A stretch of DNA of 64,000 nt from Candidatus Moraniibacteriota bacterium (lineage in GTDB: Bacteria; Patescibacteriota; Minisyncoccia; Moranbacterales; UBA1568). The DNA lies in NCBI GenBank assembly GCA_030648835.1, contig JAUSGT010000002.1, positions 501,458 to 565,457 on the forward strand, in the 5' to 3' direction. The position numbers and the translations under genes were made by a program. The notes below the pieces were generated by a model. The model searched no databases. It saw only the letters and a program-made list of their open reading frames with translations, and was not told the DNA's origin. Shown here in pieces: positions 5,059-56,176 of this stretch (its first letter is position 1; each line of letters begins with the position of its first letter).

Positions 5059-6030
5059 ATGGAAAAGAAAAAGATCTTGGTGACGGGAGGGGCGGGTTTC
5101 TTGGGCTCGCATCTCTGCAAGCGGTTGCTCGATGACGGGCACGAAGTCGTCTGTCTGGACAATTTTTTTACCGGCAACAAGGATAACGTCATTGAGCTCA
5201 TGTCGAATCCGCGTTTCGAGCTTCTGCGCCACGATGTGACGTTCCCTATTTATTTGGAAGTGAATCAAATTTACAATCTCGCCTGTCCCGCCTCCCCGAT
5301 CCATTATCAATTCGATCCGGTCCAGACGACCAAGACTTCGGTGCATGGGGCGATCAATATGCTGGGACTGGCCAAGCGGACCAAGGCCCGCATTCTTCAG
5401 GCCTCCACTTCGGAAGTGTATGGTGATCCGCAAGTTCATCCGCAGACAGAAGATTACTGGGGGCACGTCAACCCCATCGGTTTCCGTTCCTGCTATGACG
5501 AGGGCAAGCGTTGCGCCGAGACGCTCTTCTTCGATTATTATCGTCAGAACCAGCTGGACATCCGTGTCGTGCGGATTTTCAATACCTACGGTCCGAATAT
5601 GCATCCTAATGACGGCCGAGTAGTATCCAATTTTATCGTCCAGGCTCTGAAAAATGAAGACATCACCATCTATGGAGATGGTTCACAGACACGGAGTTTT
5701 CAGTATGTGGATGATCTGATCGAGGGAATGGTGAGGATGATGAATCAGGACGGTTTCATCGGGCCAGTGAATTTGGGTAATCCTCATGAGTTTACTATTA
5801 AAGAGCTCGCTGAAAGAGTACTTCACCTTATTCCAGAAAGCAAAAGTAAAATCATTTATAAGCCCTTGCCGGAAGATGACCCGCTGCAGCGTCAGCCGGA
5901 TATTACTCTGGCTAAGACAAAGCTTGACGGCTGGGATCCGAAGATCCAGTTGGAAGAAGGGTTGGCTCGGACCATTGGTTATTTCCGCGAGTACTTTGAA
6001 AAAGATGAGAAAAAAGTGGCTTCTTGTTGA
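5059..6030 (+). CDS. uxs: UDP-glucuronate decarboxylase (UDP-xylose synthase)
   Basis: '[32 protein letters not shown]', '[19 protein letters not shown]', '[26 protein letters not shown]', '[16 protein letters not shown]' are near-identical to characterised UXS enzymes. Confidence 0.9.
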
Positions 6031-6054: not shown

Positions 6055-6747
6055 ATGAAAGCGTTTGTGTTGGCAGCGGGAGTAGGAAGCCGTATGATGC
6101 CTTTAACAAAAGAGGTACCCAAGCCTATGTTAAAGCTTCTTGGTAAGCCCTTATTACAATATATTCTCGAATATCTCCCTCAAGAGGTGAGTGAAATTAT
6201 TCTTGTGGTTGGGTATAAAAGGGAAATAATCCAAAGTTATTTTGGAGAATCATTCAAAGGAAAAAAGATAACGTATCTTATACAAGAAAACCCAACAGGG
6301 ACCGCAGATGCTCTAAAAATATGTCGCCCATATCTGACGGATGGTGAGCGTTTTTTACTTACCTTCGGAGATGATATTTATGATAAAGAAAGTGTTGCTC
6401 GCTGCTTGCTTCACCCATACGCTTTTTTAATAGGTGAAGTTGCTGATCCGAGGCGCTATGGTGTTGTTGTTCTTGAGAAAGACGAAACGATTTTAGAAAT
6501 AGAAGAAAAGCCCCAGCAACCAAAATCAAACCTTGTCGCTCCCGGTTTGTATATTATTGATACCACTATTTTTGATTATGAAAGCTATGTCGATTTGTCT
6601 CACGAGTGTTATTTGACGCCTCTACTTAACCAGTTTGTGAAAAGGAAATCAGTTTTTGTCGAAAAGGTTGATTTTTGGCTTACTTTTGCCTATCCTGAGG
6701 ATTTACAAAAAGCAGAAAAAATCCTCAAATCACATGAGAAGGGTTGA
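6055..6747 (+). CDS. Sugar-phosphate nucleotidyltransferase (NTP_transferase family, short form)
   Basis: 'MKAFVLAAGVGSRMMPLTKEVPKPMLKLLGKPLLQYILEYL' is the canonical G-x-G-x-R nucleotidyltransferase N-terminus. Substrate not assignable. Confidence 0.7.
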   Translation: MKAFVLAAGVGSRMMPLTKEVPKPMLKLLGKPLLQYILEYLPQEVSEIILVVGYKREIIQSYFGESFKGKKITYLIQENPTGTADALKICRPYLTDGERFLLTFGDDIYDKESVARCLLHPYAFLIGEVADPRRYGVVVLEKDETILEIEEKPQQPKSNLVAPGLYIIDTTIFDYESYVDLSHECYLTPLLNQFVKRKSVFVEKVDFWLTFAYPEDLQKAEKILKSHEKG

Positions 6748-6772
6748 CATAAATGCTAAAAGAGAGTATAAT
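6744..6772 (+). promoter_or_regulatory. Consensus sigma-70-type promoter (TTGACA-17 nt-TATAAT) upstream of the Nudix gene
   Basis: TTGACA at 6744-6749, 17-nt spacer, TATAAT at 6767-6772. GGGGG Shine-Dalgarno before ATG 6852. Confidence 0.6.
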
Positions 6773-6851
6773 ACTACGTTACTCTATTTTTGAGTGATCA
6801 GTTATAATTTGTTGTAACTGTAATGTATTTTTTACATTTAGAGGGGGCCAC

Positions 6852-7562
6852 ATGGCTGCAACAAAGAAGTTGTCAGGAGTTCCCGGCTATAGGCCTGGTT
6901 GGAGGCTGACAGTAGACGGAATGTCTGTCGAGGGCGAATGGAAAATTATTTCGCCATTTGGATCGGTAGAAACCGCCGTTGTACTCCATGCCGATGGCAG
7001 TCCGAATTTTGATCGGCCAGCGTATCGAGAGGCGCCACACGTGAATTGTGTTGTGTGGGGCCGGGACAAGGATGGCGTGGCGAAGTTCGCTGTTATCCGT
7101 CAGCCACGTCCGCATGCCGATGACCCGGAACAGTCAGGAAATGATCATCAGTCGGTAGTGTTTGGGCAGACTCCTATGGGGTTTCTCGAAAAAATTATCG
7201 GCAAGGATCTTATTCCCAGGCTCGAGGATGTGGAACATGCCGCAGAGCGTGAAGCGTTGGAAGAGGCTGGTGCGCGGGTGGTGCTCAATGTCGAGCGTCC
7301 GCCATATCCGTGGCACAATCCGAACCCGACCTTCGTCGCCACGTGGGCGGATATCGTTTTCATCGAAGTCGATCTTGCCAAGATTGCTGAACTGAAGCCC
7401 GACCGTAGCGAGCCCATCTTTTCGGCAGAGTATGTCACGGTCGGAGAGCTTCGTCATCGGATTGCAGCAGGAAAGGATGAAGCGGGTGCGGTATATCGAG
7501 GCTGCACTTCAAACTCGGTATGGCTGATATTCTTTGCCCTCCATCCCGAACTTTGGCAGTAG
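6852..7562 (+). CDS. Nudix hydrolase
   Basis: Nudix-box core 'EHAAEREALEEAGA' (REUxEExGU). GC-rich relative to neighbours. Driven by its own consensus promoter. Confidence 0.7.
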   Translation: MAATKKLSGVPGYRPGWRLTVDGMSVEGEWKIISPFGSVETAVVLHADGSPNFDRPAYREAPHVNCVVWGRDKDGVAKFAVIRQPRPHADDPEQSGNDHQSVVFGQTPMGFLEKIIGKDLIPRLEDVEHAAEREALEEAGARVVLNVERPPYPWHNPNPTFVATWADIVFIEVDLAKIAELKPDRSEPIFSAEYVTVGELRHRIAAGKDEAGAVYRGCTSNSVWLIFFALHPELWQ

Positions 7563-7713
7563 ATACAAGGAGACTTGTGGAACTTTTTCTTAGCAACGGC
7601 TACGGAAAGGACAAGGCGTTTACCCGCAAGGGAGACGCCTTTTTTCTGCCCATTTTCTTTTCTAAGTAAGGAACCTTTGCTATACTGCAAGGGATAGATT
7701 TTTTAAAGTTTCT

Positions 7714-8691
7714 ATGATCAGATATAGTTTCATTATCCCGGTCAAGGCTATCAATGATTATATCCATGAAGCCGTACCAAAAATCCTCCAGATCGAGCGG
7801 GATGATTACGAGATTATCATTTATCCTGATAGAGCAAACGATGAGTCGTGGCGGAAGACGAGGCAAATCGCTACCGGACATTGTGGCCCGGCGGAGAAAA
7901 GGACGAGAGCCATTCATGACGCGCTGGGTGAGATTCTTATTTTCGTCGATGATGACGCGTATCCGGAAAAAGATTTCCTCGATCATTTGGAAGAAGATTT
8001 CCGAGACCTTGGCATTACGGCAGTCGGCGGACCGGCCATCACGCCAAAGCATGATTCTTTTTGGCAGAAAGTATCCGGCGCGGTATTTCTCAGCTTTCTT
8101 TCCGGTGGCTCACCGGAGCGCTATGTGTCGGTGGGGAAGAAACGGCTGGTGGATGACTGGCCCAGTGTGAATCTTTCGATACGCAAGGATGCCTTTATAG
8201 CTCTGAATGGTTTCGATTGCGAATTTTGGCCGGGAGAAGATACAAAACTCTGTCTCGATATCATCAAGAAGATCAAGGGGAAAATCCTCTATGACCCGGC
8301 TCTTATCGTGTATCATCACAGGCGCGAGGGTTTGTGGCGGCATATGAAGCAAGTCGCAGGCTACGGGTTGCATCGGGGATTTTTTGCCAAGAGATACCCG
8401 GCAACATCGCTCCGGTGGAAATATTTTCTCCCCACGTTCTTTTTCCTGTTTGTGAGTTTCGGAACAGTCGCGGTTCTTCTTGACAGAGATTTTCTTATCT
8501 GGTATTTGGCTCTATGGAGCCTTTATTTTGTAGGTCTCCTGAAATCCGCGGTAGATATTTATCGTTATGAACAAAATATTGCTATCATAAGCCACGCTCT
8601 TTATTATATTTTTTTCACCCATCTCGCGTACGGTTTTTCTTTTCTCAGGGGTTTTTTGTGGACTTGGAAACTCAAGAGCAAACTTCGCTAA
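7714..8691 (+). CDS. GT2 glycosyltransferase with C-terminal membrane domain
   Basis: 'SFIIPVKAIN...YEIIIYPD', 'IFVDDDAYP' DxD motif, 'ED' motif, four C-terminal TM helices. Confidence 0.7.
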   Translation: MIRYSFIIPVKAINDYIHEAVPKILQIERDDYEIIIYPDRANDESWRKTRQIATGHCGPAEKRTRAIHDALGEILIFVDDDAYPEKDFLDHLEEDFRDLGITAVGGPAITPKHDSFWQKVSGAVFLSFLSGGSPERYVSVGKKRLVDDWPSVNLSIRKDAFIALNGFDCEFWPGEDTKLCLDIIKKIKGKILYDPALIVYHHRREGLWRHMKQVAGYGLHRGFFAKRYPATSLRWKYFLPTFFFLFVSFGTVAVLLDRDFLIWYLALWSLYFVGLLKSAVDIYRYEQNIAIISHALYYIFFTHLAYGFSFLRGFLWTWKLKSKLR

Positions 8692-10890: not shown

Positions 10891-12633
10891 TTACGGTATT
10901 TTCCCTCGGATCACTTGCAAGTTTTCTTGCAAGTTTTTGTTTTGTGGGTCGATTTGCAAAGCTTGCTCTATATATTCCGAGGCCTTTTGAAAATCGCCTT
11001 GATTGAAAGAAATAGCGGCTAGATTCTGATACGACTGCCATAAACGCGGATTGAATTCCAAGGCTTTCTGATAGTTTTCTATAGCCAAATCGATTTTTCC
11101 CATATCACGATATGTGTTGCCCAAATTATGATAAGCATCGGCATAACGAGGGTTTATTTCAACGGCTTTCTTGAATTCTTCCACCGCTTTTTCCGGATTG
11201 CCTTGTCGGGCATAGACATCGCCTAAATTGTTGTGGATAACTTGTCCGGAAGGTGACGTCTTGGCCGTGGCAATCCAAAGTGTATCTTCATTTTTCCAAT
11301 CCATACCTCGGATAATTGTTCGGATAGAGAGGGATAAAATTATAATCACGAAAAGAGCTACAAGCGCGTGCTTATACTTTTCGTTTTTCTCTTGCGCTTT
11401 TTCCCAAACCCAATTAAAAAATATCGCCACGACGACAAAAATTCCGATGGATCCCAGGTAAACATAGCGCTCGGCGACAATCCAGGAAACACCAAGTGGT
11501 GTGAGTGTCGGAGAAAGAGCAATAAGAAAAAAAGATAACCAGAAAAAAACTGTCTTATTCTTTTTCCAAGTGAAAATAATCGCTGCTAAGAATAAAATAA
11601 AAATAAACAGCATAAAAATATAGGTTCCGGAAGAAAATGACATTTCAGTGTGGTATAAAGAGAGTTTGTCCGGCCACAGCAGAAGCTTCAGATAGTTGAT
11701 AATGGCAATCGGTATTTGGACAAAAATCGAATGGATATTTGTATCTTGGTATTCCTCAGTTTTGATAGAGGCCATTCTTTGCCCGATTTTAGAGATATAT
11801 ATAATTGCCCAAATAAAACTCAATCCGGCGTAGGGCAATAGCTTCTTCCAATTATTTTTGAGATTCCCCCAGATAAACTCAAAAATTATAAAAATCAAAA
11901 ATAGCGGTATTATTTTTTCGGAAGCAATAAGCGCTAAAAAAAAGAAGAAATATGACGCAAATAGTCTTTTTTTGTTTATTCTCGTGATAAAAAGAAAAAA
12001 GGAAATTAAAAACATAAAAACCGATAGGGCATATGGCATAGCGGAAATCCAAACAACTGTTTCGGTCAGAACAGGGTGGACAGCAAAAAGAATTGCCGCG
12101 AAAACAGCAATTCTTTTTTTTGAAATAATACTTAAAATAGAAAAGATAAGAAAAACTGAACCGATATGAGAAATAACATTGATTAAGCGAAAGAAGAAAG
12201 GAGATAATCCAAATAAACTAACAATGGTAAAATGAAAGAAGCGTTGCAGGCTCCCCAGTAGTGAAGGATCCAGTATATTGCTAAAATTTTTAATAGTAGC
12301 AGTGCTGCCTGAAATGACCGGGATATCATCCGATACAAAGCCGCTTCCCAGAGAATTGAAATAAATCACAAAAATCAAGAAAAACAATCCGATGAAAATA
12401 AACAAGTTTTTTTGAAAAAATTCGGCAAAAACAAAATCTGTTTGCCGGTTTTCCGGAATATCTCCCGGTGTATTGTTCCGGGTATATTTATTATATTTTT
12501 CTAAGCGCCAGATTTTTTTTAGATATTTTTTGATTATTTCTTGTTCAACGTCCAAGTTCTCAGCAAGCGTTTCTATAGGGAAATGCTTGATGTTTTTATG
12601 GATATATTCTTTCTGTTTCGATGTCAGACCCAT
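10891..12633 (-). CDS. GT-C membrane glycosyltransferase (PMT_2/DUF1736-like, 'FVSDDIP' motif) fused to C-terminal TPR repeats (TMTC-like architecture)
   Basis: About 10 TM helices. Extracytoplasmic 'FVSDDIPVI' acidic motif after TM1. C-terminal TPR units 'AYHNLGNTYRDMGKIDLAIENYQKALEFNP...'. Confidence 0.6.
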   Translation of the reverse strand: MGLTSKQKEYIHKNIKHFPIETLAENLDVEQEIIKKYLKKIWRLEKYNKYTRNNTPGDIPENRQTDFVFAEFFQKNLFIFIGLFFLIFVIYFNSLGSGFVSDDIPVISGSTATIKNFSNILDPSLLGSLQRFFHFTIVSLFGLSPFFFRLINVISHIGSVFLIFSILSIISKKRIAVFAAILFAVHPVLTETVVWISAMPYALSVFMFLISFFLFITRINKKRLFASYFFFFLALIASEKIIPLFLIFIIFEFIWGNLKNNWKKLLPYAGLSFIWAIIYISKIGQRMASIKTEEYQDTNIHSIFVQIPIAIINYLKLLLWPDKLSLYHTEMSFSSGTYIFMLFIFILFLAAIIFTWKKNKTVFFWLSFFLIALSPTLTPLGVSWIVAERYVYLGSIGIFVVVAIFFNWVWEKAQEKNEKYKHALVALFVIIILSLSIRTIIRGMDWKNEDTLWIATAKTSPSGQVIHNNLGDVYARQGNPEKAVEEFKKAVEINPRYADAYHNLGNTYRDMGKIDLAIENYQKALEFNPRLWQSYQNLAAISFNQGDFQKASEYIEQALQIDPQNKNLQENLQVIRGKIP

Positions 12634-17055: not shown

Positions 17056-17084
17056 TTGACATAACTTGTAAAAAATGCTATAAT
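17056..17084 (+). promoter_or_regulatory. Consensus sigma-70-type promoter (TTGACA-17-TATAAT) upstream of a GC-rich inserted gene
   Basis: TTGACA at 17056-17061, 17-nt spacer, TATAAT at 17079-17084. AGGTGA Shine-Dalgarno before GTG 17144. Confidence 0.6.
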
Positions 17085-17143
17085 GGACTTTACCTAAATA
17101 GGTAAAAATGTCCGTTCCAAATTCAATAGAGAAGAGGTGAAAA

Positions 17144-17737
17144 GTGGATAAATTTGCAATAAAGGCTTTAAAGAGCCTTGCAATCGGGCTGGAAACGAAT
17201 TCAGCTACGAAGGACGAGGTGAAAGCAGCCGCCGTGGCAGTACTTGGTTTGGTTGACCCGCGGGAACCGTATGGTTCGGCTCTCTTCAATGCTTTGGCAC
17301 GACTAACCATTTCCGTGTGTGTGGAGATGGTGATCTTGCGAAAAGCTGCGGATTCATCGCAAGAGGTGCTTCTCCGCAAGCGGGGAGCCGACGAGGTCTA
17401 CGCTCATCAATGGCACGCGGTAGGCTCGTCGTTCCGTCCCGGTGACCCAGTAGCCAAAACGAGCGCTCGGGCGCTTCGGGAATTGGGGAATATACCCCTT
17501 CCGTCACCCGTTTTTCGTGGGCACTTCAACTGTCTCACCGAGGAGCGCGGGCACTACGTCCAGTTGATTTACGCCATCGACGCCACGGGTGTGGAAATAC
17601 CCACAATGCCGGGGCATATCGAATGGTTTTCCACTGAGGCCTTGCCCCAAGACCTCGTCGAGAACCACCGCGAAGTAGTGCTTCCGGTGGCTCTCGGACA
17701 CTATGACTCACGCGACATGGAAAGCTTCGTTCGCTGA
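17144..17737 (+). CDS. GC-rich hypothetical protein with degenerate Nudix-like segment
   Basis: GTG start. 'VCVEMVILRK...EVLLRKRG...GSSFRPGDPVAKTSARALRELGN' resembles a Nudix box lacking the catalytic Glu pair. Inserted between rfbG and rfbH with its own promoter. Confidence 0.4.
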   Translation: MDKFAIKALKSLAIGLETNSATKDEVKAAAVAVLGLVDPREPYGSALFNALARLTISVCVEMVILRKAADSSQEVLLRKRGADEVYAHQWHAVGSSFRPGDPVAKTSARALRELGNIPLPSPVFRGHFNCLTEERGHYVQLIYAIDATGVEIPTMPGHIEWFSTEALPQDLVENHREVVLPVALGHYDSRDMESFVR

Positions 17738-17897
17738 TCAGGCGGGGATCGATTCGGCCTTGTGCAAGATATTTGCGCAAGGCCGTTTTATTTATCATAA
17801 AATCTCAGATTTTGAAGAATGACGTATTTGCCGTCTTTTATTGGTTTTTCCTTTCAAACCGTGTATACTATGCATACTAATTACTGAGAGCGGTCCC

Positions 17898-38833: not shown

Positions 38834-39811
38834 TTACGCAACAACACTTGTTTGGCGGTATTTTTTCATGACACCTTTTCGGATGCGGCTGATGTCGGTG
38901 TGCATCATATAGGCCCAGTTCTGCATCCGTTGCCATTTGGTGCCCATCTTATTGACGAAGCGGGCGTAGGCCATCGGATCTTTCTCCGGGTCAGGTTTAT
39001 TCCAATCTCCGGTACCCGGAATGGGAGCGATGAATTCGAAGCCGTCTTCTCCTTCACCGAAAGCATCGAGCAGCTTGATGAGCGTGGGGACTTCTTCGAC
39101 CCCGTGTTCATCGTATTCATAATCCGCGGGTAAGATGTTGCCGGCTTTGTCACGCCGTTCATCGTCCCAGGCAGGGATGGTAGAGCGACGAGGATCATCG
39201 AGGCGCCGCTGCTCACACATCGTGTCGAAGCCACCGACCTGCATAAGAGAAATATTATGCCAGAGTGAGCACGTATTCATGATGTAGCCTTGCATCACGT
39301 ATGGCTTGATGGCGTCGAAGCCGAGGCCCGTGACGAGCGCGCCTTCGTCGAGCGCACCGAGCATACACGCGAAGGAATCGTGCGTAATGTTGGAGTCGGC
39401 CTCGCTTGAAAGGATGAGTGAATGACTGCAGCCTTTGACAAGCTGGACGGCGACTGCCCGATTCAGAATCTGACAGAAAATATCGCCGTGTTTCATTTCG
39501 TGAACCCAGACATTGGGTATATCACGTTCAATGATTTCGACGACCAGCGCCTCGGCGAGTTTCCCACAGTCATGGTCCTTGCGCGCTCTGTCAGACGCTA
39601 CCCAGATATCCACCCGTTTGATGGTATTCTTTTCCGGGTGGTGTCTCAAGGTTTGCAACATTTCGACGGTGCCAAGCAATTGCTTGACGCGCGCCGGGAC
39701 ACTTTCCTGTGTTCCGGCAAATCCGCGGAGGATGGCGCCAACAGTATTCTTTTCGAGGAAGTGTGCCGCGCCGCGTTCGTGGACTGCATTGCTGCGTATG
39801 TCTTGTATCAT
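38834..39811 (-). CDS. GC-rich hypothetical protein, GT-A-like fold candidate; paralog of the 60063 gene
   Basis: 'LSSEADSNITHDSFACMLGALDEGALVTGLGFD' aligns with 'CLDDNEHSFLSALDLLEKIEQGYLGAIGT' of the 60063 protein. AGGAGA Shine-Dalgarno. Own consensus promoter. Confidence 0.4.
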   Translation of the reverse strand: MIQDIRSNAVHERGAAHFLEKNTVGAILRGFAGTQESVPARVKQLLGTVEMLQTLRHHPEKNTIKRVDIWVASDRARKDHDCGKLAEALVVEIIERDIPNVWVHEMKHGDIFCQILNRAVAVQLVKGCSHSLILSSEADSNITHDSFACMLGALDEGALVTGLGFDAIKPYVMQGYIMNTCSLWHNISLMQVGGFDTMCEQRRLDDPRRSTIPAWDDERRDKAGNILPADYEYDEHGVEEVPTLIKLLDAFGEGEDGFEFIAPIPGTGDWNKPDPEKDPMAYARFVNKMGTKWQRMQNWAYMMHTDISRIRKGVMKKYRQTSVVA

Positions 39812-41114: not shown

Positions 41115-41209
41115 ATCCAGCACCTTCCAGAATACCCCGTGGTCTTGTCACGGGGGTAAATGGAAACATCAATCCATCCTGCGTGGTTCAATACCCTAAG
41201 GTGCTGGAT
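41115..41209. repeat. Palindromic repeat element, family A, copy 2
   Basis: ATCCAGCACCTTCCAGAATACCCCGTGGTCTTGTCACGGGGG...AAGGTGCTGGAT. The last 5 codons (NPAP*) of the convergent minus-strand gene are encoded inside it. Confidence 0.7.
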
Positions 41210-43034
41210 TTACTTTGACGACCTTGATAAAGTTTCCTTGACGGTTGCCGATAAAAAGTTGCCAAGCCGGATTGGGCGCGTTGTAATATCGGTACGCCGT
41301 GAGCCCCGATTTTTCTTCCCAGCGATCGTATTTCGGCATATAGCGGATCTGTCCGCGGCGCGTGAGGACGTAGTAATCCGGGTGGAGCGTTTCTTTATCG
41401 AATGAGTAGGCCGTGAGGCAACGCCCGACAAAAAATTCGCAGACGCCGTAGTAATCCGACCAGACGGTGAGCCGCTCTGCGTTTGGGAGACCATTCAGGT
41501 AGACCGCGGCTTCGTAGCCGCCATAGCCCCAGGCATCACTGATGAGGGCGTTTTGAGGGAGGAGGAAATTGGTGTAATTGAAGTAGAAAGGTTTGATGGT
41601 GATGAGACTGGCAAGCGAGCCCAAGAAAATGATGGAGGTTATGAAAAACGGCGTCCATCGTGGGGTGAACTTTTCACAGATAAACCAGAAACCAAGGGCT
41701 GCCAAAAAAGCGAAAAGAGGATAGAGGAAAACGCTGTAGCGCGGCGTCGAGAGGACATTGGAAAAAAGAAGGAGAAGTGTGTACGCGAGAGCGAAAAGGA
41801 GTAAACCGGAAGAGAAAAACGAATAGTTGTTTTTCTTTTTTACTATAAGCGTGGTGAGGAGAGCCGTCAGTCCCAAGAGTACGAGTGGCGTGAGTGAAAA
41901 GATTATCGGGTTCCATTCCAGAAGCAAGGCTTCCAAAAAGCGGGGAGTGTCCGTATAGTAGCGGGCGTTGGAAAGGTCTTTGATGTCGAAAGGGATGAGC
42001 GCGAAGATTCTCCACCCGGCAAAAAAGTTTCGGGCGATGATGAGGAAGAAAAAAATACCCAAAAACAGAAATGGTAGCGCGCGCGAGAGAGGAACAAGAA
42101 ATTTCCGGTAAAGGGTACGGACAAAGAAGAGGAACTTGTTTTTGAAAATGAAGGTGTCGAGGGCGAGCACGCCAAGGAGGAGTCCTCCACTTGAAAAGAA
42201 GATCAGTTTATGGGGAAGGGCAAGGAAGAAGGCATCTCGGGCGCTCGGACTGATGAGAAGAGCGGGAAGAAAAAGGCACAGAAGAATGAGCGCGCCAAAA
42301 ACAATTATGGTCCATTGGATGAGAGATTTCTTCAAAGCGCTCCGCAGAGTTTCATCGGTCGTCTCATCGGCACGCAAGAAGCGGAAAAGAATAAGCGCCA
42401 AGAAGAAAGGAAAGAGAATAAGTGCCGTGTATTTGGAAAGGAGTGCCAAGCCGGTACAGACGACAGTGAGCCACAGGAATTTCTTTTCTTCGGATTTTAA
42501 GAGGGCGAAAAAAGAAAATATCGCCACCATACCGAAGGACCAGAGGAGACTGTCGGGATTCACGATTTGCGAGATGCCCAGCAGAATCGGTGAAAGGGCC
42601 GAAAGGAGAGTAGTCCAGAGAGCGATCCAAGGATTCGTCAGTTTGACAATGAGAAAAAAGAGAAGGAAGAGAAGGCATCCGTTCAAAATGAGAAGAGGGA
42701 GACGAAAGTCTCTGTATATCGCCTCTACCCGATTCGTTTGGCAGGTGAGTATTTTGGCGTTGCTTTCGACGCATAGTGTCTTGGAATCGGGGTCGAGAAA
42801 GTAGCCTATGCCGGAAACCAAAGCCAGACTCACGCCGGGCTTGTCGTTGATAAAGGTTTTCTTCCATTTGCTGTTGGCTACGGCATCCCAGTATTGCGGG
42901 ACGCGTTCATAGACCCAGTAGTGCTCGTCCGCGGTGATGAACTTTCCCAGGTGTTGGAGGCCAAAGAAAAAATACGCGGAGAAAACAAGCGCCAATGAGA
43001 TATGGAAAAAATATCTGTTGAGAAAACCAAGCAT
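41196..43034 (-). CDS. GT-C polytopic glycosyltransferase, ArnT/PMT (GT39/83)-like
   Basis: 'FITADEHYWVYE' DE-motif in first extracytoplasmic loop, 'DKPG', about 13 TM helices, C-terminal soluble domain. Confidence 0.6.
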   Translation of the reverse strand: MLGFLNRYFFHISLALVFSAYFFFGLQHLGKFITADEHYWVYERVPQYWDAVANSKWKKTFINDKPGVSLALVSGIGYFLDPDSKTLCVESNAKILTCQTNRVEAIYRDFRLPLLILNGCLLFLLFFLIVKLTNPWIALWTTLLSALSPILLGISQIVNPDSLLWSFGMVAIFSFFALLKSEEKKFLWLTVVCTGLALLSKYTALILFPFFLALILFRFLRADETTDETLRSALKKSLIQWTIIVFGALILLCLFLPALLISPSARDAFFLALPHKLIFFSSGGLLLGVLALDTFIFKNKFLFFVRTLYRKFLVPLSRALPFLFLGIFFFLIIARNFFAGWRIFALIPFDIKDLSNARYYTDTPRFLEALLLEWNPIIFSLTPLVLLGLTALLTTLIVKKKNNYSFFSSGLLLFALAYTLLLLFSNVLSTPRYSVFLYPLFAFLAALGFWFICEKFTPRWTPFFITSIIFLGSLASLITIKPFYFNYTNFLLPQNALISDAWGYGGYEAAVYLNGLPNAERLTVWSDYYGVCEFFVGRCLTAYSFDKETLHPDYYVLTRRGQIRYMPKYDRWEEKSGLTAYRYYNAPNPAWQLFIGNRQGNFIKVVKVNPAP

Positions 43035-43163
43035 ACCCAGTAGTGAAACTTCGATAGTTTTTTAGGAAAACTATCTCTGTGTATCAAATGTTATTTTTTA
43101 TCAATGCTTCTTATGAAAGATTCCACCATAATACTTAATCGAAGTTCTACTACTGGGCATAGC
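43030..43163. repeat. Inverted-repeat cassette, family B, copy 2
   Basis: AGCATACCCAGTAGTGAAACTTCGA ... TCGAAGTTCTACTACTGGGCATAGC. Left IR overlaps the ATG (on minus) of the 41196..43034 gene. Right IR abuts the stop of the 43163..45433 gene. Confidence 0.6.
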
Positions 43164-45433
43164 TATTGTTCAAAACGGAACACTTTGACGAAGTGCGACG
43201 GACGATTATTGATGAGGATGTGGAAGAGCGGATTGGTTTTCGTGTAGTACTGATCAAAACGGATGATTCCGGGTTTATTATTGGCGATATCTCCGCCCAT
43301 CATCTTGGTTGTTCGACTCTGGCGGCCGGCAGAAACGACGATATAGTCGAGCCCGTTTTCCCGCATCATCGCATAGTTCCGACTGCTTGAGCATCGGCCG
43401 ACGAAGAATTTGCATACTCCATCTTTGTCCGTCCAAATGAGCATATTTTTGGCCTCAGGCAAGGAGTTCAGATACTGGGCGGCCTCATAGCTCCCCGCGC
43501 CCATATCTTTCACGTCAACGCTGTATTTGGCCGGCAGGAGCGCTGAGGCATAGCTCAGGGGAAAGGGTGTGAGAAAAAGCGTCAGCCCTCCCAAGAGGAT
43601 AACGAGAGAAGTCACGAAGACCGGTGTCGGCATTTCTTTGAGGGAGAATTTTTTGTGGATGGCAGTCAGACAATGTTCGAGAGTAATCCCGGCGATAATG
43701 GCGGCCAGGGGGAAGATGATAATCTGGTAACGGACAATCGCTCCCACGTGATTGACGGTTGTTCCGAGATAGTAGAGGAGAGTGAAGACGATGAGGTAGA
43801 AAGAAGTGCGCAAGGCGACCGATTCCGCAAAATGTTTTTTGAGAAAGAAAAAGGGCGCGATAATAAGAAAGAGGAAAACGAGCGGAGTGATACCGAAAAG
43901 GAGCGGGTAGAAATTCGTGAGGTAGGCGCCGATGAAATCGCTTTTGTCGGCAATCGTCTTGGGCGAGGCGAGGAGTTCCATAAAGTGATAGGGTGTCATA
44001 CCGAGCCACGTATCGAGAAGAGTGAAGGAAACAGCCGTAAAAAATATTCCACCGATGACCCAGGCGAGAGTGTGTTTTAGTTTTTGGAACAGGCTCAAAA
44101 TGACGCCGGTGAAACGGGATGCGTTCAGCCATTGATCGAGAAGAATGAGAAGCGTGACCACCAGAAAGAGAGGAGCCACTTTTTCAAAGGCTTGGCTTCC
44201 GAGGGTGGAGGTGAAGAGTTTCATTGGTTTGATCCACACGGCTGGAAAGAGAATGTAAAAAGTGGTGAGCGCCGCAAAGGTGAGGAGGGCAAGATGCTCA
44301 AGCGATTTTTTCAGGTAGCGAGTGAAAGGAATGAGCGCCTGTTTGGGATGGTAGAGATATTCGAGGAAAATGAGACCGAGGAAAAAAACAAAAAGAATAT
44401 TGGCGACATACTTGGTGAGGAGCGCCAAACCGAGAAAAATTCCGGAGAAGATGAGATAGCGAAACGAGCCACGTTTCTGAAATACAAGGTACGAGAGGAG
44501 CGAAAGCGGAGCAAAGACCCAAAGCAGCGAATCAGGGTTGATGATTTTGGTTATACCGATCAAGACCGGGGAAAGCGCGATAAAAGCGAAGCCGAACACA
44601 GCGTGTCTTCTCCCGAGCAGGCGTTCCAGAAAAAAGTAGAAAAGCGGCAGGAAGAGCGTGACAAAGAGAAGCTGTGGGAGACGGAAAGCGAAGTAATAGC
44701 TTTTTACATCGTTTTTGAGGTTGAGAACCTCACCTTGGTAGTGCGTGGTACGGTACTCTTTGGTCGATTTGAAAAATGTGCCGGGCCCGGTTACCAGAGC
44801 CACGGTAATACCCGGTTTATCGCTGATACCGGTGCCTTTCCAATCGCGCTCCCCGATATTTTTCCAGTATTTGGCGATGCGACCATCGATCCAGAGTGGT
44901 TCATCGACTGCGGCATACTCTGTGAGGCGGGAGAGTCCGAAAACAAAAAACATTCCTGTTACGATGAGGATGAGGAGAAGCGTCGGCAACCCTTGGGCGA
45001 TGAACCAATTCTTGCAGGTCAGCGCTTCACTGTCGATTCTGTTTTCAGCGGCGCGTTCTTTGCCAATGAACAGGGCGGAAACGAGTACACCGCTCGCGAT
45101 AACGTACATCCCAAGCGCTATCCAGAAAATATAGTGAAAATGACGAGAGGCGCTGAGGCCATAGGCCAAAATGAGTATGCCCGGAAGCCAGATGAGGAGC
45201 AGCCGGGAAAGCCACTTTTTCCAATCGAATTGCGAAGAAAAATAGGCAACCGCGCCTAAAGAAAGTACGCCGGCAATGGCGAAACCGAGATAAAATGGAT
45301 TGTTGCTCGAAGCGAGACGAAAGAGCGCGAGAGAATTTACTTGAAGAGAAACAAAGAGAAGTGTAAGCAATGCGTTGCAGACTGTCAAAATCCCGTAGAC
45401 ACGTTTTTCTTGGTTATCGAAAAAAGCCAACAT
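43163..45433 (-). CDS. GT-C polytopic glycosyltransferase, ArnT/PMT-like (tandem paralog)
   Basis: 'AAVDEPLWIDG' DE-motif, 'DKPGITVALVTG'. More than 14 TM helices. Confidence 0.6.
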   Translation of the reverse strand: MLAFFDNQEKRVYGILTVCNALLTLLFVSLQVNSLALFRLASSNNPFYLGFAIAGVLSLGAVAYFSSQFDWKKWLSRLLLIWLPGILILAYGLSASRHFHYIFWIALGMYVIASGVLVSALFIGKERAAENRIDSEALTCKNWFIAQGLPTLLLILIVTGMFFVFGLSRLTEYAAVDEPLWIDGRIAKYWKNIGERDWKGTGISDKPGITVALVTGPGTFFKSTKEYRTTHYQGEVLNLKNDVKSYYFAFRLPQLLFVTLFLPLFYFFLERLLGRRHAVFGFAFIALSPVLIGITKIINPDSLLWVFAPLSLLSYLVFQKRGSFRYLIFSGIFLGLALLTKYVANILFVFFLGLIFLEYLYHPKQALIPFTRYLKKSLEHLALLTFAALTTFYILFPAVWIKPMKLFTSTLGSQAFEKVAPLFLVVTLLILLDQWLNASRFTGVILSLFQKLKHTLAWVIGGIFFTAVSFTLLDTWLGMTPYHFMELLASPKTIADKSDFIGAYLTNFYPLLFGITPLVFLFLIIAPFFFLKKHFAESVALRTSFYLIVFTLLYYLGTTVNHVGAIVRYQIIIFPLAAIIAGITLEHCLTAIHKKFSLKEMPTPVFVTSLVILLGGLTLFLTPFPLSYASALLPAKYSVDVKDMGAGSYEAAQYLNSLPEAKNMLIWTDKDGVCKFFVGRCSSSRNYAMMRENGLDYIVVSAGRQSRTTKMMGGDIANNKPGIIRFDQYYTKTNPLFHILINNRPSHFVKVFRFEQ

Positions 45434-45526
45434 AGGAGGTTGCTTCAGAGCTTAAAATGGTTTAAAATGAAGGAAAGTTTACTTGTATCCTAGCCTAATT
45501 TAGGGAAAAAAGAAAGGCTGAAAAGT

Positions 45527-47314
45527 GTGTTTCAATTTTCTTCAAAGCAACTGGTAATTATCTCCTTGATAGCCATCATTTTATTTGGGGGTTTTTTGCG
45601 TACGTATCATTTTTCCGACTGGCTTCATTTTGAATTGGATCAGGCGCGGGATGCGCGCGTCGTCGATGACGCTCTTTCCCTGGGACCGGGTGAGTTGACG
45701 CTTTTGGGACCGAAGGCTGGCGGGACAGCGCTTCGTCTGGCGCCGGGATTTTATTATCTGGAGTATGTGAGCGCGCTCGTATTTGGTGGAACGCCCGCCG
45801 GTATGGCGGCGTTTGTGATGATCTTTTCCGTTCTTTCCCTTCCGCTTTTTTACTTTTTGCTCCGGAGGTTTTTCCCTTGGAAATTTTCTCTGGCGTTGAC
45901 ACTGCTTTTTGCCGTTTCGGAATACGCGGTGATGTACGGACGGTTCGCGTGGAATCCGAACCTTATCCCATTCTTCTCACTCTTGGGGTTCTACGCGCTT
46001 CTCCGATCGGTCGATCACGAAGAATCAAGGAAGAGTGGATGGTTCCTTGTCTCGGTTTTTTCCCTTACTTTGGCGACCCATTTTCACTTTCTCGCTTTTC
46101 TCGCCTTGCCGGCTATTTTTGTGCTTTTTCTTGTTTTTCGTCGGCCGCGTTTTCCTTGGAAAACATGGGTTTGGGCCGGAATAATTGCTCTCTGTCTCTA
46201 CGCGCCGCTTCTTTTGAATGAAATGGAAACCGGCGGCGCCAATACGCGTGAATTTTTCAAAGCGGTGACCGAAAAATCAAATAACGAAAAGCATTCTTTG
46301 ATTGAAAAGGCTCTTCGTGACGTATCGGGGCACGCGCTTTCCGGTATGGTTATCACGACCGGTTTTGAAGGGGGTACATTTCCGGCGGTGGTTGTCGCGA
46401 AGGAAGGTAAATGGATAGACTGGACCTGCGATAACCGCTGTGATAAGGGGAAATGGTATGGGATAGCGGCCACGCTCGTTTTCATAGCCAGTCTTTTTTC
46501 GCTTGGGTGGCTGTGGTTCAGGACAATGGAACGCAAACGACTCGATTTTCTGCTCCTCTGTGGGATATGGTTCGGTGTTACTTTTACTCTTTTCTTGCCG
46601 CTCGCGTATGATATCGTTCCGAGATTTTTTCTCCTTTCCCTTCCGCTTTTCTTTATTTTTATCGGGTTTGTTTTATTCTCCATAAGAAAGCTTTTCGGTG
46701 CCAGTCGAATCGTACGCCAGGCGGTATGGATACTGCTTGCTCTTCTTGTCGTTTCCAATCTTTTTTTCCTGACGCAGCGTTTTGACGAATTGTCGCAAGC
46801 CGGGAGCGCGGCCATCGATAGCCCGCCGGATCGTATTTTGAAGGAACGCATTCGTGTGACACTGGAGCAACAGAATGCGATTGTAGATTTTCTCGGGGAG
46901 CGTTTCCAAAAAACGGGCTACCCGGTGTTTATGTGGAGCGAACCTCAGCACCGTCGCGCGCTCAAGTACCTCTTGGAAAAACGTGGAATAGAGAATGCCG
47001 TCTTGGGTTTTGATGGGGTATATCGGCAAGGCGTTTACTATCTTATTTTACGGGCCCAATCCGATCTTGAGGACGCGCTCAAGAAATATCGCGCAAGCTA
47101 CACAGTCGGGAAGACGACCTCATTCGGGACGCTGGTTGTGATCGAACTCATGCCAAAACCGGAAGCTATCATGGGTGAACGCAGGGATTTTTCGGCGGCG
47201 AAACCTGTGGAAATCAAATCTTCACCGCGCTATACCTGGCGGGAATATTTCAGTCGCAATTTTTCTCAACCTGAGAACATAAAAGAGGATATCGAAGACG
47301 CAGAAGATAATTAA
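45527..47314 (+). CDS. GT-C-like polytopic membrane protein (ArnT/DUF2029-like)
   Basis: GTG start. 'FELDQARDARVVDD' acidic loop after TM1. About 11 TM helices plus C-terminal soluble domain. Confidence 0.45.
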   Translation: MFQFSSKQLVIISLIAIILFGGFLRTYHFSDWLHFELDQARDARVVDDALSLGPGELTLLGPKAGGTALRLAPGFYYLEYVSALVFGGTPAGMAAFVMIFSVLSLPLFYFLLRRFFPWKFSLALTLLFAVSEYAVMYGRFAWNPNLIPFFSLLGFYALLRSVDHEESRKSGWFLVSVFSLTLATHFHFLAFLALPAIFVLFLVFRRPRFPWKTWVWAGIIALCLYAPLLLNEMETGGANTREFFKAVTEKSNNEKHSLIEKALRDVSGHALSGMVITTGFEGGTFPAVVVAKEGKWIDWTCDNRCDKGKWYGIAATLVFIASLFSLGWLWFRTMERKRLDFLLLCGIWFGVTFTLFLPLAYDIVPRFFLLSLPLFFIFIGFVLFSIRKLFGASRIVRQAVWILLALLVVSNLFFLTQRFDELSQAGSAAIDSPPDRILKERIRVTLEQQNAIVDFLGERFQKTGYPVFMWSEPQHRRALKYLLEKRGIENAVLGFDGVYRQGVYYLILRAQSDLEDALKKYRASYTVGKTTSFGTLVVIELMPKPEAIMGERRDFSAAKPVEIKSSPRYTWREYFSRNFSQPENIKEDIEDAEDN

Positions 47315-54208: not shown

Positions 54209-56176
54209 TTACTTTTTGCGTTGATAGATATGGATGTCATCGGAGGCGTAGATACGGGAAAACTGTTCTGATTTTTCGAATTGGGTCGTATCGAAATGAG
54301 GATTGATGATGACGAAGTTGACATCGAGATCAGCATAGCATTTTTCCCCGCGAGCCGTATTGGGTATGGAAATCATAAGAAGGGTACACTGTTCGCGATT
54401 GGGATTGTCTTCATAGCGTTTGAAGAAACCGCGCGAAAGCGGGTAGGCGTAGTCACGGAGAAAAAAGAGCTTTATCCAAGAATCGGCCGCGATGTAATTG
54501 TGATCTTTGAGAATGTTTTTCCCTTCACTGTGTTCCGCGAGATAGCGTGAGGCGGAAAACGTTTGGAGAAGAGAGAGCGCTTTGCTTTTGGGAAGAAGCG
54601 TCTGATTGTTATCGAGGGATCCGTTACCGAGAGAAAAAACGAAGAGAGTCAGACTCATAATGAGGATAACCATGCCTGGTACGCGCAATTTCGACTGGGC
54701 GTTACGAAGCGTGGCAAAAAAAGTGATGGTCGCAAACGCCGAGAGGAGACCGATGGGAAAGGAAAAGTAGGTTACGATGCGATTGGAGGGAATGTCGATG
54801 AAGAGCCATTGTGGACGGAGAGTCATAATGAGGAGAATGGCACACCATCCGATGAGAAAAGCTCCGGCATAGCGTCTCTGTCGGCGCAAACCTGCCAAAA
54901 TGGCCAACCCGACCAGACCGAGGGCAATGCGCGCCTCTCCTCCTGAAGAAGCCAGTTGAAAAAAAGAAAGTCCGGTACGCGTGGTTTTTGTTGGTGTCCC
55001 GATCGCGGTAACGACGGCATTCGTTTCGATATAGGTCGGCATAGCTACTCCGAAAAAGAAAACGATAGAGAGACAAGCGACGAGAAGCGGTCCCGGGGAA
55101 GAAACAAGTTTCCACCAGGAAGAGAGGAGGGTTTCAAGAGTGTCATAATGGGTGATCAAATACAGAAGCATTGAAGCAACCAGTACGAAAAGAAGAATGA
55201 GTGTGCTCAGATGATGTGTGTAGGCGAGAACGAAGGTGAGAAAAAAACCAAGCGCGAGAAAACCGGGACGTTTCTCTCTGAATGCCCGGTAGAGGACAAG
55301 GAGAATGAGCGGGATGAAAAAATTGCCTATGACGTTGCCCACTACGCCACCGGAAACAAATTTGGCTTGCGGTGAGGCAAGCGTGAAGAGCGGACCAAAG
55401 AAGAAAAGTGTTGCGAGAGCGATGTTTTGCGGTGTTAGAGCGTTTTTCGGAAGAAGTGGACTTTGCATGCCGGAGGCAAAACGGAGAGCCAGGATGGAAA
55501 GCGTGAGCAGGCTCAAAACATTGATAAGTAAGAGGAAAACCACCGGAAAGGCGGAGAGGAAATCAAGTCCCGTAAACAGAGAGAGAGCCGCAAAAGGCAG
55601 GTGTTCGCCGATAATGAAGTCGGGGATCGGTTCCGGTTCCGTTAGTCTATAGATGCCATCCGTGCCCGTAATGATCTCTTGTTTGGCATAGGAAGGCAGC
55701 GTTCCTGTTGTAACAATCAATTTAGACCAGTACATATGGTGCCCGAGATCAGTGGCCGTGGGAAGTATCGCATGCGTCAGATAAATCACCTTGATAAAGA
55801 GTGTCAGAGCGATGAGAATGATAAAGAGTGTGCCTTGCCGCCTACTGAAAGAAAATGTTTGTTCCGGTATTTCTTCCGTTCTCGTCTCGTTTTTTTTCAG
55901 GCGCTTTGTTATGAATGTTGCGTTGACAAGGAGAGCAAGGGTGGCAATCATCCCGACAAACAGTGAGAAAATATTGATCGCGATACCGAGTTTTCCGATG
56001 ATGATCATGAGAAAATCAATCAATCCGAGACTGATGCCGAAAGAAAGAATGAGCCTTTCCAAAGGGGAAAAGAGACTTTGTTTTTTGAAAAACACACGGA
56101 GAAGGGTCCAGCCGGGAAGATAGAAAAGTATCCCGGTAGCGAGAAAAAAAACAAATGTATCAATGAGTGGGCGCAT
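54209..56176 (-). CDS. Large polytopic membrane protein, GT-C-like/DUF2298-like
   Basis: More than 14 TM helices. Periplasmic-type loop with Asp/His residues. C-terminal soluble region. Confidence 0.4.
   Translation of the reverse strand: MRPLIDTFVFFLATGILFYLPGWTLLRVFFKKQSLFSPLERLILSFGISLGLIDFLMIIIGKLGIAINIFSLFVGMIATLALLVNATFITKRLKKNETRTEEIPEQTFSFSRRQGTLFIILIALTLFIKVIYLTHAILPTATDLGHHMYWSKLIVTTGTLPSYAKQEIITGTDGIYRLTEPEPIPDFIIGEHLPFAALSLFTGLDFLSAFPVVFLLLINVLSLLTLSILALRFASGMQSPLLPKNALTPQNIALATLFFFGPLFTLASPQAKFVSGGVVGNVIGNFFIPLILLVLYRAFREKRPGFLALGFFLTFVLAYTHHLSTLILLFVLVASMLLYLITHYDTLETLLSSWWKLVSSPGPLLVACLSIVFFFGVAMPTYIETNAVVTAIGTPTKTTRTGLSFFQLASSGGEARIALGLVGLAILAGLRRQRRYAGAFLIGWCAILLIMTLRPQWLFIDIPSNRIVTYFSFPIGLLSAFATITFFATLRNAQSKLRVPGMVILIMSLTLFVFSLGNGSLDNNQTLLPKSKALSLLQTFSASRYLAEHSEGKNILKDHNYIAADSWIKLFFLRDYAYPLSRGFFKRYEDNPNREQCTLLMISIPNTARGEKCYADLDVNFVIINPHFDTTQFEKSEQFSRIYASDDIHIYQRKK

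Follow-up and report, generated by a model that had tools for sequence, protein, structure and literature searches.

The stretch of DNA analysed here (64 kb, hereafter the window) derives from a metagenome-assembled genome (MAG) of Candidatus Moranbacteria, which belongs to the Patescibacteria or candidate phyla radiation (CPR), and its element of interest is a short transcription unit built around a gene for a Nudix hydrolase (Table 1). An earlier note on this DNA had described a Nudix gene with a REALEEAG box, a consensus TTGACA-N17-TATAAT promoter and a strong Shine-Dalgarno sequence, and all three were recovered: the box corresponds to residues 133-140 of the 236-residue product, the promoter matches the consensus at every position of both hexamers, and a GAGG core precedes the ATG at a distance that is also kept by the GGAG or GGAGG of homologues. 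The -35 hexamer shares bases with the TGA (6745-6747) that ends the preceding gene, which encodes a sugar-1-phosphate nucleotidyltransferase (denoted NTP-transferase). Downstream, we identified an intrinsic terminator that was absent from the features listed previously. Promoter, Shine-Dalgarno sequence and terminator thus delimit a promoter-to-terminator unit. Just past the terminator lies a weaker promoter candidate with an extended -10 element (TTTTCT-N17-TGcTATACT; 7658-7686, forward strand), which would restart transcription for the downstream GT2 glycosyltransferase gene (7714-8691).

A search of the window for TTGACA-N17-TATAAT with up to one mismatch yielded three sites, at 6744 (+), 17056 (+) and 39971 (-), all of them perfect. 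Dinucleotide shuffles gave a mean of 0.37 sites, and none of 100 shuffles reached three, placing the promoters above chance expectation. The three sites stand before the three GC-richest of the 50 genes of the window, and hairpin terminators are also found 3' of the other two genes (17144-17737 and 38834-39811 on the reverse strand), which agrees with the previous observation that two further GC-rich genes have the same arrangement. The AT-rich leader of the Nudix gene folds into three small hairpins (minimum free energy -22.9 kcal/mol; z = -3.6 against shuffles). In homologous loci the distance between the -10 hexamer and the start codon varies from 28 to 79 nt, and both the length and the sequence of the leader differ; a conserved regulatory leader was therefore rejected despite the good folding in the window, and we assume no conserved regulatory RNA.

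Table 1. Features of the Nudix unit, its upstream neighbours and the two other units with perfect promoters (window coordinates).
Feature	Position	Strand	Details
Sigma-70-type promoter	6744-6772	+	TTGACA 6744-6749, 17-nt spacer, TATAAT 6767-6772; 12/12 consensus match
Nudix 5' untranslated leader (inferred, ~73 nt)	6779-6851	+	assumes a start ~7 nt past the -10 hexamer
Shine-Dalgarno sequence AGAGGGGG	6840-6847	+	GAGG core ends 7 nt before the ATG
Nudix hydrolase gene	6852-7562	+	236 aa; Pfam NUDIX match; two-domain, Patescibacteria-specific subfamily
Intrinsic terminator	7613-7647	+	GC-rich hairpin AAGGCGUUUACCCGCAAGGGAGACGCCUU followed by UUUUUU; region z = -4.0
Sugar-1-phosphate nucleotidyltransferase gene	6055-6747	+	NTP_transferase; AglF/RmlA/HddC-like, below every equivalog cut-off
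SDR-type NDP-sugar epimerase/dehydratase gene	5059-6030	+	profile matches; part of the conserved neighbourhood
Second unit	17056-17795	+	perfect TTGACA-N17-TGcTATAAT 17056-17084; gene 17144-17737; terminator 17755-17795
Third unit	39971-38780	-	perfect TTGACA-N17-TATAAT 39971-39943; gene 39811-38834; terminator 38818-38780
Third-unit leader (~130 nt)	39936-39812	-	conserved in orthologous loci

The product of the Nudix gene matches the Pfam NUDIX profile (PF00293) over residues 104-209 with 26.6 bits, above the gathering cut-off of 21.1. Its Nudix box reads G117-x7-E125-x7-R133-E134-x2-E137-E138-x-G140 and is followed by A141; the spacing G-x7-E in place of G-x5-E puts the glycine 8 rather than 6 residues before E125. 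R133, E134, E137, E138 and G140, and likewise H88, Q106, N156, P157 and E187, are invariant among 49 homologues from many CPR lineages; for E125 the conservation is at least 90%. Because the catalytic as well as the family-specific residues do not vary, the protein is predicted to be a catalytically competent enzyme that is under strong constraint. An AlphaFold2 model calculated from the 49-sequence alignment (pLDDT 89, pTM 0.84) displays the alpha/beta/alpha Nudix fold, which is preceded by beta strands over residues 19-60. Comparison of the model with the Protein Data Bank (PDB) by Foldseek gave 155 matches at E <= 1e-3, the top 50 of which are all Nudix enzymes. The best-scoring ones are NudF from Klebsiella and E. 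coli, NudK (YffH) from E. coli and human NUDT5, with E values of ~3e-10 to 8e-9; the alignments extend over 208-230 columns including the N-terminal domain, comprise nearly the whole targets and have target TM-scores of 0.61-0.75. As modelled, the protein resembles the two-domain class of nucleoside-diphosphate-X (NDP-X) pyrophosphatases of the NudF/NudK/NUDT5 type.

The ADP-ribose diphosphatase NudF (E. coli, 1g0s; Klebsiella, 9dre and 9b20) and human NUDT5 are the best structural matches (E = 3e-10, 18-20% identity) and have the two-domain architecture and the REx2EE catalytic core in common with the window protein, the gene of which is surrounded by nucleotide-sugar and glycosyltransferase genes and not by genes of NAD or ADP-ribose metabolism. 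The GDP-mannose pyrophosphatase NudK (PDB 3o61 and 3o52) has the same two-domain fold with an N-terminal beta domain (Foldseek E ~1e-9; target TM-score 0.70-0.75 over ~213 columns), and its NDP-sugar substrate class fits the glycan-cluster setting of the window gene. However, the two proteins are 14-15% identical and unconnected by sequence searches, and the window protein is set apart by its G-x7-E box and the invariant motifs FDRP, QPRPH, GQxPMGF and HNPNPTF. To our knowledge, nudK lies outside any glycan cluster. The GDP-mannose mannosyl hydrolase WcaH (NudD, Gmm) of the colanic-acid cluster has ~160 residues in a single domain. The likeness to WcaH, which the earlier note had already drawn, concerns the setting, that is, a Nudix gene inside a polysaccharide cluster that is thought to regulate the nucleotide-sugar pool; the window protein, in contrast, comprises 236 residues and two domains, and its top 50 matches are pyrophosphatases like NudF, NudK and NUDT5, with no Gmm structure among them. 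Nudix enzymes split nucleotide sugars into nucleoside monophosphate (NMP) and sugar phosphate; WcaH cleaves at the sugar C1 to yield GDP and mannose (PMC7729866). The window protein would represent an uncharacterised subfamily of NDP-sugar/ADP-ribose pyrophosphatases that resides in a polysaccharide cluster and is functionally analogous to WcaH and NudK.

Relatives of the Nudix protein at 50-82% identity were found across many CPR lineages, including Lloydbacteria, Minisyncoccia, Paceibacteria, Nealsonbacteria, Azambacteria, Magasanikbacteria and MAGs labelled Saccharibacteria. Of 1.84 billion representative proteins, 136 match the family with E <= 1e-3, and with E <= 1e-30 the number falls to 49; the family was found in 25 of 185,579 species representatives. 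The gene is also present in sample SRR13727527. Judged by these searches, the subfamily appears to be small, sequence-isolated and uncharacterised, and a literature search for Nudix together with Patescibacteria or candidate phyla radiation returned nothing relevant. Homologues at 58-59% identity (L024, L036 and P0110) come from contigs that were assigned to Aenigmatarchaeota or to an 'uncultured archaeon', which reflects either cross-domain transfer between CPR and DPANN or mis-binning.

Glycan genes were recognised near the Nudix homologue in at least 18 of 27 loci. In the commonest layout, genes for a TrwB-like ATPase, an LTD/PKD protein, a large short-chain dehydrogenase/reductase (SDR) and sometimes an NTP-transferase precede the Nudix gene, and three GT4 glycosyltransferase genes follow it; Lloydbacteria show the order SDR-(NTP-transferase)-Nudix-GT4x3, as do MAGs labelled Saccharibacteria, Paceibacteria or Azambacteria. 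The window itself has the layout flippase, GT2, SDR, NTP-transferase, Nudix, GT2, radical SAM, and a similar order, flippase-GT2-...-Nudix-GT2/UDP-glucose dehydrogenase-radical SAM, recurs in L032 and L028. About half of the homologous loci have an SDR gene immediately 5' of the Nudix gene or, where an NTP-transferase gene intervenes, immediately 5' of that pair. The Nudix gene directly follows the orthologous NTP-transferase gene in L008, L047, L048 and L002/L004, and it is in L047 (82%), L008 and L048 (both 80%) that the nearest relatives by Nudix identity are found. As a side observation, the full series of a TrwB/TraG-like ATPase, an LTD/PKD protein, an SDR of ~500 residues, an optional NTP-transferase, Nudix and GT4x3 is present in L002, L005, L008, L013, L016, L018, L020, L023 and L031; why a coupling-protein-like ATPase stands beside a glycan cluster is an unexplained link in this CPR module.

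Based on the fold class and on the conserved NTP-transferase/SDR/glycosyltransferase neighbourhood, which also support the connection to nucleotide sugars proposed in the earlier note, the most likely role of the protein is in the hydrolysis of nucleotide sugars of the cluster, with the product of the adjacent NTP-transferase gene as the likely source of the substrate. ADP-ribose is a serious alternative substrate. The best structural matches are ADP-ribose diphosphatases, and the invariant P157 is situated 16 residues after A141 in a proline-rich stretch (P150, P151, P153, P157 and P159); a proline ~16 residues past the Nudix box is said, following work by Dunn and colleagues in 1999, to be a signature of ADP-ribose pyrophosphatases. 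Together with the gene's own promoter and terminator, a very high conservation across CPR that would fit a core function, and the roughly one third of loci that have no recognised glycan neighbours, these features would speak for a housekeeping enzyme, either an ADP-ribose pyrophosphatase or a nucleotide-salvage enzyme of a nucleotide-auxotrophic CPR cell, that is unconnected to the glycan pathway and hence separately transcribed. We nevertheless consider such a housekeeping role rather unlikely. NTP-transferase or SDR genes upstream and glycosyltransferase genes downstream recur in two layouts and many lineages, which is hard to obtain by accident; the GDP-mannose hydrolase NudK scores equal to NudF; and an occurrence in 25 species representatives and 136 representative clusters is too sparse for a core CPR gene.

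The signals that flank the Nudix gene are found in relatives as well. An exact TTGACA lies within 150 nt upstream of the gene in 13 of 26 homologous loci. The corresponding rate is 14% for other genes preceded by a gap of 60 nt or more (Fisher p = 1.7e-4), and for random windows it is 4%. The promoter match is 12/12 in L018 and 11/12 in L002, L027 and L048. At or just past the end of the NTP-transferase gene, TTGACA is present in L008, L047 and L048, where the -10 hexamer matches at 3/6, 4/6 and 5/6 positions, respectively, and a conserved terminator follows; an equivalent -35 hexamer is also seen in L002. A terminator consisting of a hairpin and a T-run was detected after the Nudix homologue in at least 14 of the 26 loci. 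These frequencies, together with the promoter, Shine-Dalgarno sequence and terminator of the window copy, support the previous description of the gene as independently expressed. The earlier note had also named, as evidence that would refute its reading, homologues at the same locus that lack the promoter; related genomes do carry the gene at the same locus, but the promoter is kept (L008, L047, L048 and L002). Since locus and promoter are both retained, the autonomy of the gene is old and conserved and not the scar of a recent insertion. In addition, we observed perfect TTGACA-N16-18-TATAAT promoters at four unrelated CPR genes (L019 66-94, L035 10170-10197, L037 10543-10572 and L039 5987-6015), far above chance. 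The motif is therefore a normal strong promoter there and not a foreign signal, and sigma-70 consensus promoters of the textbook kind would seem to be normal for monocistronic genes of these CPR genomes.

To describe base composition, the 50 genes of the window served as the host reference. GC content is 0.544 for the Nudix gene, 0.559 for 17144-17737 and 0.537 for 38834-39811 (-), and the gene mean is 0.453 +/- 0.049. The Nudix gene exceeds its upstream neighbour (0.384) by 16 points, its downstream neighbour (0.465) by 8 points and the window gene mean by 9 points. An excess of ~15 points over both neighbours, as put forward before, is hence seen on the upstream side and not on the downstream side, and the operon is not 'AT-rich': its remaining genes have 44-49% GC, the adjacent NTP-transferase gene being the only AT-rich one. 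Expected GC was computed for each amino-acid sequence, with the synonymous codon usage of the 49 remaining genes pooled as reference. For the Nudix gene the expected value is 0.537 and the observed value 0.546, which corresponds to a synonymous residual of +0.010 (rank 20 of 50). Its codon log-likelihood (dLL) has a z of -0.6, and its GC content at third codon positions (GC3) is 0.536 compared with 0.508 +/- 0.078 for the window (z = +0.4). The excess sits in codon positions 1 and 2 (GC1 0.658, GC2 0.439), and the protein ranks first of 50 in its content of Gly, Ala, Arg and Pro (GARP) and 49th in its content of Phe, Tyr, Met, Ile, Asn and Lys (FYMINK), so that amino-acid composition accounts for ~90% of the GC excess. 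The high GC content of the Nudix gene reflects a conserved abundance of Gly, Ala, Arg, Pro, Asp and Glu in its product, not foreign codon usage. The strongest synonymous outlier of the window is the NTP-transferase gene (residual -0.069, the lowest of 50; GC3 0.32), and the sharp GC step at the Nudix gene is therefore largely the neighbour's doing. A GC-rich gene in an AT-leaning genome can thus be a strongly constrained native gene, and splitting GC into its amino-acid and synonymous parts tells such a gene from a horizontal transfer.

In the family as a whole, the Nudix homologue surpasses its neighbours in GC at 24 of 25 loci and in GC3 at all 25. Plotted against host GC3 for 25 hosts (28-63% GC), Nudix GC3 follows a line with a slope of 1.01 and an intercept of +0.12 (r = 0.78). 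The window copy has a GC3 offset of +0.028, the second smallest of the 25 loci, and the step from a low-GC3 NTP-transferase gene to a high-GC3 Nudix gene recurs in the orthologous pairs of L008, L004, L047 and L048. A slope of ~1 argues for a long residence in each host, whereas simple amelioration is hard to square with the constant offset. At third positions, C/(C+T) and G/(G+A) are raised to the same extent (+0.104 and +0.105), a symmetry that argues against ordinary translational selection; codon bias arising from such selection was accordingly discarded as the cause, as C-ending and G-ending codons rise equally. The GC3 offset is a family property and not the mark of a recent import, and neither recent transfer nor ordinary codon selection explains it.

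These data bear directly on the proposal that the unit is laterally acquired cargo, for which uniform codon usage had been named beforehand as refuting evidence. In its explicit form, the proposal holds that promoter, gene and terminator arrived recently as one moron-like cassette, the donor being richer in GC, and were placed inside the glycan operon. Several features would agree with this scenario: a promoter and a terminator of its own make the unit self-contained; its gene lies 9 GC points over the window mean; identities of 50-82% extend across distant CPR classes and to the contigs binned as archaeal; GC3 is 0.25-0.32 above that of neighbours in L002, L019, L025, L029 and L034; the C/G-symmetric GC3 excess is what donor composition would give; and pairwise Nudix identity does not correlate with that of the adjacent SDR or GT4 proteins (rho ~0.08), a weakly informative comparison given that Nudix identities span only 0.54-0.74 and the SDRs form two paralogue groups. 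Yet the window copy has host-like synonymous usage that is uniform with the 64-kb reference, its synonymous sites show no host-foreign composition, and the slope of 1 in GC3 argues for long residence. The gene is not absent from the same junction in related genomes, and the nearest relatives have the same NTP-transferase-Nudix junction with the -35 hexamer at the gene end. We detected neither flanking repeats nor an integrase, a tRNA scan of the window found no tRNA gene, the commonest kind of island-integration site, and a search of IMG/VR viral contigs with the Nudix family alignment found no relatives. The anatomy recalls that of phage morons, autonomous promoter-gene-terminator units lodged between operon genes: promoter and terminator are the unit's own, and its GC content departs from that of the neighbouring genes. 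Unlike morons, the unit lies outside a prophage, uses host-like synonymous codons, keeps its position across genera and has no viral relatives. For this genome we regard a recent acquisition as quite unlikely, and lateral origin is unsupported. The large-offset copies in L002, L019, L025, L029 and L034 (+0.25 to +0.32) could be real transfers.

GC richness and consensus signals might alternatively stem from codon or mRNA optimisation under selection for very high expression, an explanation that is silent on origin and function. It would account for the fact that three unrelated genes share a perfect promoter, a strong Shine-Dalgarno sequence, a terminator and the highest GC1 and Gly, Ala, Val, Asp and Glu (GAVDE) content of the window, and that orthologues elsewhere keep the promoter and the GC excess. 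However, translational selection usually favours C over U, whereas the family excess is the same for both nucleotide pairs, and C/(C+T) of the window Nudix gene is 0.43, below the 0.48 of its neighbours. We deem this explanation very improbable.

Our preferred reading, which we hold to be reasonably probable, is that the gene is native, is transcribed strongly and separately, and encodes an NDP-sugar-type pyrophosphatase by which nucleotide-sugar pools are trimmed. It would be a strongly conserved part of Patescibacteria glycan clusters, usually with a sugar-1-phosphate nucleotidyltransferase gene, an SDR epimerase/dehydratase gene or both directly upstream and glycosyltransferase genes downstream. 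The consensus sigma-70 promoter, the strong ribosome-binding site and the intrinsic terminator would make it a transcription unit of its own, so that the Nudix level could be set apart from, and probably above, that of the surrounding biosynthetic genes. As a member of a class expected to cleave NDP-X compounds such as ADP-ribose, GDP-mannose and UDP-glucose into NMP and sugar phosphate, the enzyme would hydrolyse the NDP-sugar made next door, or a by-product, intermediate or off-pathway derivative thereof. Hydrolysis would hold down or clean up the pool of nucleotide sugars and return NMP and sugar-1-phosphate for reuse. The data show the sequence features and their significance, the fold class, the intact catalytic residues and the conservation of neighbourhood and autonomy; what we infer is which substrate is cleaved, in which direction regulation acts and how strongly the gene is expressed.

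Several points weigh against an enzyme of this kind. Identity to any characterised Nudix protein is 14-20%; phmmer found no Nudix match among PDB sequences, a search of the PDB with the family profile gave nothing significant (1g0s, E = 0.56; 1viq, E = 0.62), and no NCBIfam model matches the Nudix protein or the product of either of the two other GC-rich genes. The resemblance to the characterised NudF, NudK and NUDT5 enzymes, as judged from the model, would thus be one at the fold level only. Around 9 of 27 loci have no recognised glycan genes nearby, as searched with a limited query set, and the link is accordingly frequent, not universal. The family-wide GC3 excess (mean +0.125, positive at 25 of 25 loci) goes beyond what amino-acid composition explains. 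High expression of the Nudix gene is deduced from consensus signals only. Finally, there is no terminator between the NTP-transferase gene and the overlapping Nudix promoter; operon read-through is therefore possible, and the 'separate' expression may be only partial.

Patescibacteria have tiny genomes, do not themselves make many nucleotides and need surface glycans for host contact. A conserved pyrophosphatase of the NDP-sugar type in their glycan clusters, expressed separately and probably at a high level, would amount to a simple valve on nucleotide-sugar supply and a recycling route for NMP and sugar-1-phosphate. Because the subfamily is uncharacterised, small and sequence-isolated, a single enzymatic assay would annotate it everywhere. 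The most intriguing remainder is the persistent GC offset combined with the conserved autonomy of small genes across Patescibacteria. A more far-reaching scheme, which we put forward as speculative and clearly improbable, is that self-contained promoter-gene-terminator modules circulate in Patescibacteria and DPANN archaea, plug into glycan clusters, stay richer in GC than any of their hosts through recurrent transfer or GC-biased recombination, and govern the nucleotide-sugar supply for surface glycans as an autonomous layer of control or salvage. In these episymbionts, such a scheme would perhaps span all three perfect-promoter genes of the window.

The second of these genes (17144-17737) encodes a 197-residue Nudix-fold protein with a degenerate box, in which one of the three REx2EE glutamates is kept; the protein is therefore probably not a classical hydrolase and may be a non-hydrolytic CDP-sugar-binding protein. 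A paralogous relationship between the two Nudix-like genes of the window was ruled out (BLASTP E = 16; hhalign probability 0.35%). Relatives of the 197-residue protein are very few (4 proteins). Its gene is flanked by those for CDP-glucose 4,6-dehydratase and RfbH/DdhC, which belong to a CDP-3,6-dideoxyhexose pathway, and the orthologue (L010 4610-5400; L011 5914-6700) occupies the same position with a perfect extended -10 promoter, flanking terminators and a GC excess. The forward-strand segment 15165-21953 encodes, in order, glucose-1-phosphate cytidylyltransferase, CDP-glucose 4,6-dehydratase, the Nudix-like protein, RfbH/DdhC, a three-domain thiamine pyrophosphate enzyme and an SDR. It looks like a pathway to a CDP-3,6-dideoxy branched sugar (yersiniose-like), an unusual trait in a CPR bacterium; an E3 reductase of the AscD/DdhD type was not recognised in it.

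The third gene encodes a protein of 325 residues that has no Pfam match. Its AlphaFold2 model (pLDDT 83) is similar to GpgS and PcManGT in Foldseek comparisons (E ~3e-6), and a GT-A glycosyltransferase-like fold is predicted. Promoter and leader are 85% identical in L038 (878-2014) and L041 (1270-2426), the encoded proteins being 67-72% identical. The leader could sequester the Shine-Dalgarno sequence; a leader structure is weakly supported, with one compensatory pair and a folding z of -0.6, no better than shuffles. An Rfam search with this leader at E <= 1 gave only a chance snoRNA match, and a metagenome scan with the leader motif GGGATACCTGANAAAGCTCCG gave four matches, all in one unrelated coding region and attributable to chance, and no further copies. 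The products of all three units would be soluble proteins of nucleotide-sugar metabolism, each transcribed alone inside a glycan supercluster of >40 kb.

At the scale of the whole window, Rfam gave no match at the gathering threshold and the PADLOC defence models gave none. Most of the 64 kb is a glycan-biosynthesis supercluster with marked GC heterogeneity, in which the region from 21 to 31 kb is AT-rich and has negative synonymous residuals. Several large membrane proteins of the PMT_2/GT-C type, one of them fused to TPR repeats, are encoded at 10891-12633 (-), 41196-47314 and 54209-56176, and the window also holds two flippase-like and two UDP-glucose dehydrogenase genes.

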